Assembly (NCBI GenBank): GCA_902588785.1
Contig: CACIQL010000004.1
Coordinates: 9,726-73,725, forward strand
DNA: 64,000 nucleotides
Source: an uncultured Pelagibacteraceae bacterium
Lineage (GTDB): Bacteria; Pseudomonadota; Alphaproteobacteria; Pelagibacterales; AG-422-B15
Direction of reading: 5' to 3'
Below the pieces are notes generated by a model, which searched no databases, was not told where the DNA came from, and was given only the letters and a program-made list of their open reading frames with translations. Positions 4,024-8,555 of this stretch are shown here, one piece after another; within the stretch, counting starts at the first letter, position 1, and every line of letters starts with the position of its first letter. The position numbers and the translations under genes were made by a program.

Positions 4024-4872
4024 TTATACTCCATATGCTGCAATTGTCGTTCTGTGCAATAAGCGATCTTGACCTTCATAGCCGCCCGTTGCTCGGTGTA
4101 ATACACTTCTATTGTCCCACATAATCAACATATCTTTTTTCCATTTGTGCTGATAAACAAATTCATCTTTGCACTGCCATGCACTCAACTCCATAAGAAG
4201 TTTCATGGCTTCTTGATTTTCCATACCTTCAATTCCTATGATATAACCAATCGTCCCATAAATTCCTTCTTTTTTTGTTTCGGGATGCTCTTTAATAATT
4301 GGATGAACTTGCTTAGCGAACGCTTCCTCTGACGCTCTTATATCCATACTTCTACCCATTTCTCTATCCTTTTCGCCGTAACCACCTCCAGGTGAGTAAG
4401 GCACAAGCGCTGAATGAATTGCTTTCTTACCCTCTAACTTACTTCTTAACTCTGATGGCATTTTTTCTAATGCTAAATGTTGATTAGCAAATAACGTGTC
4501 ACCACCTTCATAAGGAATTATTTTTCCAAATAAACATGTGCCTGCAGGTGGGTTTTTTTGAAAACTCCAATCAGTATGCCAATTATCTGCAAAGATTGGA
4601 ACTTTTTCATCAGCTAATCTTTTTACAGCAATTATATTTTCTCTACCAGGAATCGGAGCAATAAATGGGTCATCGCCAAATGATCCAAAATTGAGAGTGA
4701 AACGCTCAAGATCATCATCACTCATAGGTTGATCTGGAAAACTTAATACATGGTGCAATAACCAAGCATCTCTAATCCACTTAACCTCTTTCTTAGATAA
4801 TTCTTTTGTTAAATCAACACCAGTAACTTCTGCTCCACAAGCCTGGTCAGAAATTTTTACATTAAATGCCAT
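4024..4872 (-). CDS. TauD/TfdA family Fe(II)/2-oxoglutarate dioxygenase
   Basis: GAEVTGVDL, WHTDWSF (HxD), GGDTLFAN, WDNRSVLHRA and LHRTT motifs. Confidence 0.92.
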   Translation of the reverse strand: MAFNVKISDQACGAEVTGVDLTKELSKKEVKWIRDAWLLHHVLSFPDQPMSDDDLERFTLNFGSFGDDPFIAPIPGRENIIAVKRLADEKVPIFADNWHTDWSFQKNPPAGTCLFGKIIPYEGGDTLFANQHLALEKMPSELRSKLEGKKAIHSALVPYSPGGGYGEKDREMGRSMDIRASEEAFAKQVHPIIKEHPETKKEGIYGTIGYIIGIEGMENQEAMKLLMELSAWQCKDEFVYQHKWKKDMLIMWDNRSVLHRATGGYEGQDRLLHRTTIAAYGV

Positions 4873-4916
4873 GGGATTATCGTATAGGAAAATTAAAAAG
4901 TAATTAATTAAAAAAA

Positions 4917-5888
4917 TTACTTAATAAAATCCCTCATATCTTTAGCTAATTGAGCTGGTATTTCCATAGGTGGCATGTGACCAACTTCAGGATAAGAAAT
5001 TAACTTTACATTCGGTATTTGTTCAACAAAGTGATCGGTAAATCTTATATCAACTAGATTGTCTTCTTCGCCGTGAAGTATTAAAGATGGAATAGAAATA
5101 TTTTTTAAATCAGAGGGATTTGCTATAAAATCATTTTCATGATCTTCTACAAGCATTCCAATTGCTAATCTTGTTCCTTCCATCAAAATAATATCATGAA
5201 ACTGATCAACAAGTTCATCTGTAACTATTGATTGATCGTAAACTGTTTTTGACACACCTTCTTTAACAAGCAAACGTGGAGTGACATATTCTAATGCTCT
5301 TCTAAAAAATTTTGACTCAATAATTTCAAATGCGGCTGGCGGAGCATTAACAGACTGAAAATCCTTATACTCTTCCTCATTAGCTATAAATGGTGAACCA
5401 ATGATGATAAGACCGTTTAATTGGTCTAAATGCTCTAACGCATATCTCCATGCAATCATTCCACCCATCGAGTGACCAACAAAGTAGAATTTATTAACTC
5501 CTAATAACTGCACTACCTCACGTATAACTTTTTCAAAGCCTTCGTGAGAGTATAGATCTGACTTGACTGCCCCAGTAAGTCCATGAGCTGGAAGATCTAG
5601 TGAAATAACTCTGTAGTTATCGGTTAAGAATGGGACCATAGGTTCATAATTAAATAATGATCCATTAAAACCATGTATGAGAAGGATAACCTTACCTTTT
5701 TTATTTCCCTCATCTCTGTAATGAATCAAGGAACCATCTGAAAGTCTCAGAAATTCTGAGGCTTCATTTGAATGCTTTGAAATAATTTTTTCTTTTGGAA
5801 TATCAAAATATACTGAGTTGTAAGATACAATAAATATTAATAATAAAAAAAATAAACTAAAATATTTAAAAAATTTTCTCAAAAGCAT
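4917..5888 (-). CDS. Membrane-anchored alpha/beta hydrolase (lipase/esterase-like)
   Basis: N-terminal hydrophobic anchor, HGF oxyanion motif, GHSMGG nucleophile elbow, GEED and GHMP catalytic Asp/His regions. Confidence 0.9.
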   Translation of the reverse strand: MLLRKFFKYFSLFFLLLIFIVSYNSVYFDIPKEKIISKHSNEASEFLRLSDGSLIHYRDEGNKKGKVILLIHGFNGSLFNYEPMVPFLTDNYRVISLDLPAHGLTGAVKSDLYSHEGFEKVIREVVQLLGVNKFYFVGHSMGGMIAWRYALEHLDQLNGLIIIGSPFIANEEEYKDFQSVNAPPAAFEIIESKFFRRALEYVTPRLLVKEGVSKTVYDQSIVTDELVDQFHDIILMEGTRLAIGMLVEDHENDFIANPSDLKNISIPSLILHGEEDNLVDIRFTDHFVEQIPNVKLISYPEVGHMPPMEIPAQLAKDMRDFIK

Positions 5889-7241: not shown

Positions 7242-7257
7242 AAAAGTTTATTAACTT

Positions 7258-7303
7258 TGGTGGGCCCACTAGGACTCGAACCTAGGACAACTCCGTTATG
7301 AGC
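7258..7303 (-). repeat. Duplicated 3' half of tRNA(CAT), att-like direct repeat
   Basis: TGGTGGGCCCACTAGGACTCGAACCTAGGACAACTCCGTTATGAGC is identical to 8479-8524 (48 bp with flanking TT). Identity begins at the anticodon loop and includes the CCA end. Confidence 0.97.
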
Positions 7304-7374
7304 TATGAGCTTTAACCTTTAAGTTAGGTTATGTAACAAATTTTATTCTGTAAATATATAGTTTTAGACAATAA

Positions 7375-7392
7375 ATACGACATAATGACGAC
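7375..7392 (+). repeat. Arm-type-like repeats, left end of cassette
   Basis: ATACGAC at 7375-7381 and TAATGACGAC at 7383-7392; the same words recur at 8401-8461. Confidence 0.55.
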
Positions 7393-7451
7393 AAATATTA
7401 ATATCTTTTTTTCCTTAATTTTGGCTTAGTATTAAAAAAAAGGAGATTAAT

Positions 7452-8387
7452 ATGAAAAGAAATTTATGTATGATTGTATTATTTTTATCTTTTACGATCA
7501 CTGTTTCAAAAGCTACTACACTAATTGAAATTAATGCTAATGGTGATGATTGGGATATAAATCAAGTAAATATAACGACTGATGTAAAAACACTTTTAGG
7601 TTCAGGAACTTGCGTATCTGGTGTTCAACCTGGTAACTCGTTTATCGATAATTATACGAATGAAGTATTCATAAGTTGCGGTGACAATAGTTTCAGGAAA
7701 TTTAATTTAGGCAATAATTCTGAAGAAACTGTAGCAATAAATACTTCCGACTCGAGCGCCACAATTGTTGCATCATCGTGGGATGGTGAAACTACAATAA
7801 GAAAGGAAAGTGATGGAAGCGTGCATATAGGTGAAAATTCTCTAGTTACTAGGGAAGTAGGTGGGCGACAACTATTATACGCCACTAACTCAAGCGGAAA
7901 TAGAATTGATATCAATATTCCATCTGGAACGAATCTATTGATAGATGGAGAAGATGTAATGGGAAAAATCGATAGTTCAGTTGCACTGGGCGCTGCATTT
8001 GCTTCACTTCCAACAGGAGCTGAAGGTGCAGGCTATACGTGTGGACTTGGAACTGGATTTCATGACAGTGCATCTGCAATTTCTGGTGGATGCGGTTTTG
8101 ATTTTGCCAACTATTCATTTGTCGACTCTATGCCTAAATTGTTTCAGAAGGCATCATTTAACTTTGGCGCAGCATCAGTCGTTTACGGAGAAGGTGACGA
8201 CGCAACTCTTAAAGCTGGCATAACATTTAAGTTCGGAGCTCCAAAGCCTGTTAGAGAAGCTAAAGATAACAACTTATTACTAGAGAATAAAATTGATGCA
8301 GTGATGGCTGAAAATGATTTATTGAAAGCTCAAATAGCAGAAATCAATACGCAGCTTAAGACGTTAAATATGTTGGCAATGAATTAA
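7452..8387 (+). CDS. Secreted protein with YadA-like (trimeric autotransporter) anchor and C-terminal coiled coil
   Basis: AGGAG RBS at 7441; signal peptide; IDSSVALGAAFASLP...GLGTGFHDSASAISGG...LKAGITFKF resembles a YadA anchor; heptad tail LENKIDAVMAENDLLKAQIAEINTQL. Confidence 0.65.
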   Translation: MKRNLCMIVLFLSFTITVSKATTLIEINANGDDWDINQVNITTDVKTLLGSGTCVSGVQPGNSFIDNYTNEVFISCGDNSFRKFNLGNNSEETVAINTSDSSATIVASSWDGETTIRKESDGSVHIGENSLVTREVGGRQLLYATNSSGNRIDINIPSGTNLLIDGEDVMGKIDSSVALGAAFASLPTGAEGAGYTCGLGTGFHDSASAISGGCGFDFANYSFVDSMPKLFQKASFNFGAASVVYGEGDDATLKAGITFKFGAPKPVREAKDNNLLLENKIDAVMAENDLLKAQIAEINTQLKTLNMLAMN

Positions 8388-8400
8388 GTTTTTTCCTTTT

Positions 8401-8475
8401 TAATGACGACCAGATGACGATGTGATCTCGTTTCGAAAGATAAAAGTTGAGAATATACGACTTAAGTCATTGAAT
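8401..8475 (+). repeat. Arm-type-like repeats and IHF-like site, right end of cassette
   Basis: TAATGACGAC 8401-8410, ATGACGA 8414-8420, ATACGAC 8455-8461. The reverse strand of 8463-8475 reads ATTCAATGACTTA, one mismatch to WATCAAN4TTR. Confidence 0.55.
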
Positions 8476-8478
8476 TTT

Positions 8479-8555
8479 TGGTGGGCCCACTAGGACTCGA
8501 ACCTAGGACAACTCCGTTATGAGCGGAGGGCTCTAACCAACTGAGCTATGGGCCC
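8479..8555 (-). tRNA. tRNA with CAT anticodon, most likely tRNA-Ile2 (lysidine type)
   Basis: GGGCCCATAGCTCAGTTGGTTAGAGCCCTCCGCTCATAACGGAGTTGTCCTAGGTTCGAGTCCTAGTGGGCCCACCA: full cloverleaf, encoded CCA, no fMet features, and located after rpoD like E. coli ileX. Confidence 0.93.

Follow-up and report, generated by a model that had tools for sequence, protein, structure and literature searches.

A one-gene cassette with attP-like ends at a tRNA(CAT) gene of a SAR11 bacterium, and its relatives

A unit of 1,221 bp that carries a single gene and no recombinase lies at a transfer RNA gene with the anticodon CAT, tRNA(CAT), in a genome of the SAR11 clade (Pelagibacterales). We propose, at a probability of roughly 0.6, that this unit is a non-autonomous integrative cassette bounded by attachment (att) sites, which would be moved in trans by an integrase of a family found in small SAR11 elements. 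The unit belongs to a window of 64,000 nucleotides (nt), the whole stretch of DNA that was analysed, on contig C4 of a 1.15-Mb genome (38 contigs, 86% complete); the GC content of the window is about 26-41% in 1-kb steps. SAR11 bacteria have very large flexible gene pools and almost no recognisable mobile elements, and how they gain genes is an open question. The locus and its relatives offer a concrete, testable route of gene gain, with complete att sites, classes of arm repeats and named candidate relatives of an integrase. Genomes, contigs and loci are given below by G, C and L numbers.

A single gene between two copies of a tRNA 3' part

The unit is delimited by a direct repeat of 48 nt, read on the plus strand, which occurs exactly twice in the window, has 0 mismatches, and is matched in 0/100 dinucleotide-preserving shuffles (Table 1). 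The similarity of the two copies extends to 62 nt at 92%. In terms of the minus-strand tRNA(CAT), the repeat starts 2 nt past the CCA end, covers the T arm, the variable region, the 3' strand of the anticodon stem and all 7 nt of the anticodon loop, and ends on the first base of the 5' strand of that stem. The two copies are spaced 1221 nt start to start and enclose 1,175 nt, in which the sole long open reading frame (ORF) encodes a protein of 311 amino acids (aa), P0001; two further listed ORFs, of 87 and 80 aa, are nested within it in other frames. The tRNA(CAT) would be an elongator tRNA-Met or a tRNA-Ile2; the assembly contains only one other CAT tRNA, which is initiator-like in appearance. 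On one side the unit is flanked by rpoD and dnaG, and on the other by genes for an orphan 440-aa protein, an alpha/beta hydrolase, a TauD-family dioxygenase and an OYE-type oxidoreductase.

The initial annotation, made from the letters of the window, had described just such a perfect repeat of a tRNA 3' part enclosing one gene without a recombinase, and in this it was accurate. It had also placed the insertion at the anticodon loop. The repeat does cover the whole loop, but where identity ends at the loop does not tell where crossover took place: any position within the shared 46-48 nt would do. In a related cassette, that of G031, identity to the tRNA reaches 14 nt further than in the unit of the window.

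Could the structure be an assembly artefact, or a local tandem duplication of the tRNA region? The assembly is a fragmented one from a single cell, and repeats can mislead assemblers. Yet independent marine metagenome contigs cross the distal att copy into the gene, matching 7286-8018 and 7274-7925 with 1 difference each, homologous cassettes with the same junctions are present in 13 other genomes and 8 metagenome contigs, and the DNA between the repeats is unrelated to the flanks of the tRNA. As far as these data go, an artefact is already refuted.

The tRNA(CAT) gene as a hot spot

A DNA search of 60 relatives returned many additional copies of the repeat and of both cassette ends. Our genus set comprises 47 genomes, that of the window included, and 38 of them hold the 46-nt core of the repeat. 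Two to four core copies, that is, one to three units, are present in 14 of these 38, and in G010 the four copies are distributed over two contigs. The pieces between successive core copies measure 147-3,531 nt. In the two sister genera, all six core-bearing genomes are single-copy.

Three single-copy genomes of the genus (G029, G018 and G026) display the empty site, in which the TauD gene starts 48-54 nt from the end of the tRNA. In G031, G001, G013 and G005, it is the outermost att copy that lies 54-57 nt from TauD, and G031 has a short flank with homology to that of the empty site in G029 and G018. Compared with the empty sites, these cassettes are inserted precisely, at one and the same position. 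When metagenomes were scanned for the core followed by the conserved left end, eight contigs were obtained, five of which carry two to four att copies (up to three cassettes in L065), and none of the 8 ORFs scanned on these contigs was integrase-sized with a Pfam integrase match. The contigs of four metagenome runs (Logan) hold the cassette of the window at low depth; various other sequences abut the tRNA end in them, one of which is the empty-site flank of G029 and G018.

Within single arrays (L016 of G024, L017 of G027 and L013 of G010), the core copies carry different compensatory T-stem alleles, CCACTAGG..CCTAGG versus CCACCAGG..CCTGGG. As tRNA alleles, these belong to other species of the genus, which fits cassettes that bring their own core. 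One core copy of G010 is a hybrid that breaks the T-stem pair, and ARAGORN calls an internal copy in this genome a tRNA. The search that the initial annotation had itself proposed, for the same ends with other cargo and for tandem arrays, upholds its description of the unit as a discrete cassette without a recombinase, and the empty tRNA sites for which it had asked exist in relatives.

Cassettes are not confined to tRNA(CAT). In the genome of the window, a second unit lies at tRNA-Lys(TTT) (C10:15032-16533), with a 45-nt direct repeat and a gene for a 381-aa paralogue of P0001; it has the same TGACGAC arm pairs as the unit of the window, described below, together with a different core and a different core-proximal module. 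In G034, two such cassettes stand in tandem at tRNA-Lys(TTT). A third unit of the same genome, at tRNA-Ser(GGA) (C3:8946-10076), has a 58-nt direct repeat and TGGCACAC arm pairs (GGCACAC class), and encodes a 257-aa membrane protein in which a PLD-like HxK motif is recognised by reading only. Extra copies of the Lys core are present in 4/35 genus genomes, and of the Ser core in 9 of the 38 that have it.

Anatomy of the cassette ends

What do the ends of cassettes with unrelated cargo share? In the orientation of the window, most cassettes begin with a decayed tRNA 5' half of about 30 nt; some 40 conserved nt come next, and then a pair of 7-nt direct repeats with a period of 11 nt. This first pair, taken as exact repeated 6-mers of period 11, starts at +71 to +76 from the core, and at +103 to +107 in two units. 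The second pair is at -62 to -78 from the tRNA-proximal core; the core-proximal module after it comes in a few alternative forms. In the window, the pair in the arm beside the distal core (P arm) starts 73 nt from it, against 71-75 nt in other cassettes, and the pair in the arm beside the tRNA (P' arm) starts 75-76 nt before the core, against -64 or -75 in others. The core-proximal module of the P' arm in the window is common to cassettes of all three arm classes.

These classes of arm pair are ACGAC (class A, that of the window), CTGCA, and CCCGCAC (class C). Among 31 cassettes, 25 can be classed at both ends, and by reading, 22 of the 25 have the same class on both sides; in the remaining 6 of the 31, either the pair is missing at one or both ends, or the cassette is a 147-nt unit with a single pair. 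Several unrelated cargos are found within each class. The motif NACGAY-N5-NACGAY occurs 6 times in the 1.15-Mb genome, and 4 of the 6 occurrences are the arms of its two class-A cassettes. The 147-nt unit (L023, in G016) is an 'empty' cassette without a gene; its att copies start 193 nt apart and have between them the common scaffold and one CCCGCAC pair only.

The attachment site (attP) of an element with a lambda-type, or heterobivalent, tyrosine integrase consists of a core flanked by arm-type sites at set distances. By analogy, the cassette ends have the layout of such an attP: the core is identical to the host site (attB), and each arm has direct repeats, distinct from the core, at set distances from it. 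With core copies at both ends and repeats in both arms, the left and right sites, attL and attR, are both kept. Unlike a lambda-type attP, the site in the window has no integrase gene beside it, and to judge from the spacing and sequence of the arm repeats, they are putative integrase-binding sites.

Transfer between species

Two cassettes clearly crossed between species as att-delimited units. The thioesterase cassette shared by G027 and G070 is 97.5% identical over 709 nt, compared with 80.5% for 2 kb on the rpoD side, and the FkbM methyltransferase cassette shared by G006 and G021 is 98.4% identical over 740 nt, compared with 80.1% on the rpoD side. In steps of 100 nt, the sequences pass from unalignable to 92-100% identity at the distal att copy, and identity is 72-86% beyond the tRNA.

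Transfer of this kind might come about without any integrase. The cassette of the window could be an inert scar, a dead remnant that is gained, lost and exchanged only by RecA-type recombination over the 46-77 nt of tRNA/att identity and the arms. Direct repeats of 46-48 nt are in principle enough for deletion, and for insertion of a circle by a single crossover. G027 and G070 differ in the core-proximal P' module of the thioesterase cassette, which points to homologous exchange within the arms, as do the cassettes with discordant arms that are counted below. However, homologous exchange leaves unexplained why identity drops exactly at the att copies, with no tailing into rpoD, and it does not explain the 11-nt period, the fixed distances and the co-variation of the two arms across cassettes whose cargo proteins have diverged to 41-66% identity. 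The lack of element-family integrases in the 47 genus genomes, taken up in the next section, speaks for an inert scar; the absence of integrase fragments from 31 cassettes is not accounted for by it. Taken together, we consider an inert scar unlikely, though as the main rival it deserves serious attention.

Integrases in SAR11 genomes and viral contigs

If the cassette has no integrase of its own, where might one come from? The only Phage_integrase (PF00589) matches in the genome of the window are on contigs C11 and C1, with none on C4, so that the window indeed has no integrase, as the initial annotation had stated; Resolvase (PF00239) has no match in this genome. Across the genus, a Pfam integrase search found two conserved copies per genome in nearly all genomes, and these two tyrosine recombinases are probably XerC and XerD. 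Further integrases of the genus are one in a tRNA-Gly element of G009 and, in G035, a P4-like one that lies away from any tRNA.

A resident recombinase of another kind, such as the two chromosomal tyrosine recombinases or an unrecognised enzyme, might be the one that moves the cassettes. The two are the only recombinases found in nearly all genus genomes, and elements that borrow Xer are known in other bacteria. Xer-dependent elements, however, use dif-like sites and not tRNA cores with arm repeats, and the cassette arms match the layout of the arms beside dedicated integrase genes of SAR11 elements. A resident enzyme seems to us very improbable.

Such a dedicated integrase is found at the same tRNA gene. 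In G060, a complete Pelagibacter genome, tRNA(CAT) bears an element of 9.4 kb that encodes an AAA_25 protein and an integrase of 315 aa (PF00589, 2.6e-14). With this integrase as query, and relatives defined by E<=1e-20, matches were obtained in 25 of 401 genomes of the order, including 21 of the 274 of the largest genus and 1 of the 5 of a sister genus of the window's family. A tRNA or tRNA part lies within 330 nt upstream of the integrase gene in 20/20 loci read by eye, and an exact 6-mer pair with a period of 10-12 stands just before the integrase start codon in 18 of the 20. Two elements at tRNA-Arg(TCT), in G087 (14.3 kb) and G156 (6.4 kb), carry TGACGACCTGATGACGA-type TGACGAC...TGACGA pairs, the class of the window, near both ends. 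The element of G077, at tRNA-Lys(TTT), has GGACGTCA pairs; beside its integrase gene is an arm collinear with the P' arm of the window, with a T-rich stretch before the repeats and a TTTCG(A/G)AAAG box after them.

The small SAR11 elements (L063, that is, G060:C1:875000-890500, and L093, L094 and L095) are 6.4-14.3 kb long, sit at tRNA(CAT), tRNA-Arg(TCT) and tRNA-Lys(TTT), and combine an integrase with a primase-like or AAA_25 gene, a satellite-like make-up. The element of G087 has an additional run of genes for small secreted proteins or lipoproteins. When four integrases and two primase-like proteins were compared by tblastn with the 31 cassettes (35.7 kb), the best and only match had E=0.16; the lack of integrase or primase remnants implies that the cassettes are not freshly decayed elements.

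Viral sequences gave little of this kind. By blastn, the core and P arm matched only tRNA-like stretches of 47-62 nt in 50,697 phage records, and the relatives of the SAR11 integrases on viral contigs are distant, none of the 80 kept being more than 34% identical. The class-A arm string TGACGACCAGATGACGA is present in 6 viral contigs, which we set aside as coincidence: all occurrences are in one coding region, in phages of 43-46% GC. The class-C pair ATCCCGCAC-NN-ATCCCGCAC occurs in 11 viral contig stretches (L052-L062), mostly of 55-67% GC, and several of these pairs lie just past the apparent 3' end of a tyrosine integrase gene, with two pairs 194 nt apart in L054. These viral pairs could reflect a shared arm-binding specificity or coincidence.

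Proposed movement in trans

We propose the following mechanism. Site-specific recombination between tRNA(CAT) and an attP that contains a pseudo-tRNA would insert the cassette. The insertion would rebuild the 3' part of the tRNA from the copy of the element and displace the old 3' part of the host to the far end, at 7256-7303. The cassette would retain the full attachment apparatus, namely the shared core and the paired arm repeats of the TGACGAC class in both arms at fixed distances, and would belong to a pool of mostly one-gene units that stack at tRNA(CAT), tRNA-Lys(TTT) and tRNA-Ser(GGA) in the genus. The motor, supplied in trans, would most likely be a heterobivalent tyrosine integrase of the family of the rare SAR11 elements of 6-14 kb.

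The initial annotation had put forward movement in trans. We infer it because the arm sites are intact and co-varying and because cassettes are far more alike than their flanks; the repeats would bind an integrase, and excision and integration in trans would still take place. Co-variation of the arms is also seen without assigning classes. After five near-duplicate or overlapping rows were dropped, 26 non-redundant cassettes were left, in which the longest substring common to the two arms of one cassette averages 8.42 nt, compared with 6.33 nt for arms of different cassettes. The observed sum was reached in 0/20,000 permutations, a figure that is inflated by cassettes related by descent.

Several other observations weigh against the proposal. 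Three of the 25 classable cassettes have discordant arms, and three cassettes (the FkbM unit in G006 and in G021, and L065_c3) are without recognisable arms. The class-A repeats in the G087 and G156 elements stand in the orientation to the tRNA opposite to that in the window. Relatives of the G060 integrase are found in 0/46 of the other genus genomes, most of them 51-94% complete, and none in the genome of the window, and a cognate integrase for the cassette was not found in the genomes searched. The integrase beside the same att core for which the initial annotation had suggested looking was not found in the same genome or in the viral sequences searched; no viral contig has the core, and neither the 46-nt core nor a 26-nt part of it has an exact match in IMG/VR. 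No circle or excision junction was seen in the contigs of the four metagenome runs, which are too short to show one. The cassette shared by G013 and G033 is less alike (89.3%) than its rpoD side (93.0%). Finally, the cassette of the window is 85.6% identical over 609 nt to its nearest relative, that of G031, with 83.6% on the rpoD side, and to judge by these values, the copy in the window bears no sign of recent transfer.

Cargo proteins

P0001 has, by reading, a signal-peptide-like N-terminus, followed by a variable N-terminal part, a conserved YadA-anchor-like part and a C-terminal coiled coil; the protein itself has no Pfam and no PADLOC match. Among nine cassette-borne paralogues, a C-terminal portion of about 190 aa is conserved; the N-terminal part differs widely. 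A profile search scored 7,999 candidates, 136 protein clusters among them with E<=0.001, and the sources listed for them include Tara, other metagenome collections and single-cell genome records. A profile of the cargo found nothing in PDB sequences or PADLOC, and no relatives of P0001 were found in viral contigs. Over the stretch aligned to P0001 (BLASTP E=1e-27), two of the relatives, P0120 and P0121, score above the cut-off (22.7 bits) of the YadA_anchor model PF03895, with 29.9 and 30.0 bits, and two others have YadA head and stalk repeats. It is unusual that in P0001 the anchor-like part does not close the protein but is followed by a coiled coil. From these similarities, P0001 is most likely a relative of the trimeric autotransporters: a small surface protein of the outer membrane whose exposed part varies. 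The surface-protein cargo suggested by the initial annotation is plausible.

Six of the seven loci with cargo relatives are assigned to Pelagibacteraceae, in line with a SAR11 host, as are the genome size and the GC content given above. The L038 locus, a 2.1-kb contig in a Candidatus Uhrbacteria bin, encodes a relative 56% identical to the SAR11 cargo protein, and its assignment is probably a binning error. Other cassettes carry genes for an AT3-SGNH acyltransferase, TylF and FkbM methyltransferases, a thioesterase, Sel1 and AIPR proteins, caspase-domain, DUF4379 and DUF805 proteins, and small lipoproteins. By reading, and with some cassettes recurring in several genomes, 21/21 cargo ORFs outside the P0001 family that lie between two att copies are on the strand of the tRNA, and 6/6 genes of the P0001 family are opposite to it.

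Comparison with known systems

The kind of element is already in print in outline, and the view in the initial annotation that this was an undescribed system does not hold. According to the portion of PMC11796062 available to us, SAR11 islands without canonical mobile-element genes contain partial tRNA repeats (>90% identity), read there as insertion of gene cassettes. The unit of the window agrees with those cassettes in three respects: it is from the same clade, combines an intact tRNA with a partial repeat, and has no mobile-element gene. Arm repeats, their classes, the pseudo-tRNA, one-gene arrays at tRNA(CAT) and transfer between species are not described in the same portion of that paper. 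In the literature on SAR11 gene cassettes with partial tRNA repeats, we found none on this end anatomy; the supplements of PMC11796062 may show more. The architecture of the arm classes and the att-delimited transfer across species add detail that we did not find in print.

The concept of cis-mobilizable elements (CIMEs), as set out in the part of PMC5704250 at hand, covers elements without integration and transfer genes that keep attL and attR and often stand in tandem at the 3' end of a tRNA gene. CIMEs of streptococci resemble the unit of the window in keeping both att sites without an integrase and in stacking in tandem at a tRNA gene. They are described in that part as decayed integrative and conjugative or integrative and mobilizable elements that move by accretion with a conjugative element, whereas the cassettes here are 0.15-3.5 kb long and mostly carry one gene. 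Unlike CIMEs, the cassettes have no integrase or primase remnants, no conjugation genes were seen in the loci or in the ORFs of the candidate parent elements examined, and each arm class bears several unrelated cargos.

Tycheposons and satellites resembling phage-inducible chromosomal islands (PICI-like satellites) are known from marine bacteria. In Prochlorococcus, according to the excerpt of bioRxiv 10.1101/2020.12.28.424599 on which we draw, tycheposons integrate in tandem and leave degenerate remnants with partial tRNAs. The unit of the window shares with the tycheposons of that excerpt the tRNA targets, the partial tRNA repeats, the tandem integration and the degenerate remnants in islands, but it is without a tyrosine recombinase or replication genes of its own. 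The SAR11 elements of G060, G087 and G077, with an integrase and a primase-like gene, resemble tycheposons and PICI-like satellites in make-up, as far as the same excerpt describes them.

The initial annotation had also likened the unit to an integron cassette. As a likeness of function this stands: the cassettes are mostly single, promoter-poor genes that form arrays at one platform, with the uniform orientation noted above for the 21 ORFs outside the P0001 family. In structure it fails, in that there is no attC (judged by reading the ends), attI or IntI, and the boundaries are direct repeats of tRNA parts with arm sites. In this light, the loci could be viewed, tentatively and with somewhat less than even confidence, as an integron-like cassette economy on tRNA genes. 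One-gene cassettes, each with a full attP of pseudo-tRNA core and exchangeable arm sites, would stack up and circulate in it, also from species to species, the arm classes would serve as address labels for lineages of integrase, and the integrases would act in trans from rare satellite-like elements or phages and not be kept by the cells. The cargo, with its hypervariable YadA-anchor-like surface proteins, glycan-modifying acyl- and methyltransferases, AIPR and caspase-domain proteins, fits cassettes that feed an arms race with phages. If this view is true, cassettes at tRNA genes would be a main route by which streamlined cells without resident mobile elements refresh their surface and defence genes.

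Features of the unit and neighbouring genes

The features of the unit are collected in Table 1. A promoter-like match at 7333-7362 on the plus strand (9 of 12) is weak and at chance level.

Table 1. Features of the cassette at tRNA(CAT), in positions of the window.
Feature	Position	Strand	Evidence or remark
Distal att copy, displaced 3' part of tRNA(CAT)	7256..7303	-	Exact 48-nt repeat of 8477-8524
Decayed tRNA 5' half, putative pseudo-tRNA part of attP	7304..7334	-	62-nt repeat family, 92%; aligned by reading with D-arm and acceptor part
Conserved P-arm backbone, common to cassettes with unrelated cargo	7335..7375	.	Left ends of 16 cassettes, aligned
P-arm paired repeats TACGAC-N4-TGACGAC, period 11, putative class A arm-type sites	7376..7392	+	
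Cargo gene P0001, 311 aa	7452..8387	+	
P'-arm paired repeats TGACGAC-N4-TGACGAT, period 11, class A	8404..8421	+	
P' core-proximal module, GATCTCGTTTCGAAAG... plus palindrome GACTTAAGTC at 8459-8468	8422..8478	.	
Intact tRNA(CAT); proximal att copy is its 3' part, 8479-8524	8479..8555	-	ARAGORN, 8479-8555; Rfam, 8482-8555 (RF00005, 69.3 bits)

The orphan next to the distal att copy, P0002 (5919-7241, minus strand, 440 aa), has a signal-like start and long coiled-coil stretches, and its start codon is 17 nt from that copy. It has no Pfam or PADLOC match, and no homologue among the 20 related loci compared. P0002 may be an older cassette that has lost its outer att copy; a second att copy or arm pair was looked for to the left of it and not found. 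The TauD and alpha/beta-hydrolase genes beside the hot spot differ in presence and order between species, as seen when 4024-5888 of the window is compared with the loci of relatives. In G023, TauD was not found in the 9-kb locus, and a hydrolase 87% identical to that of the window starts 8 nt from the tRNA.

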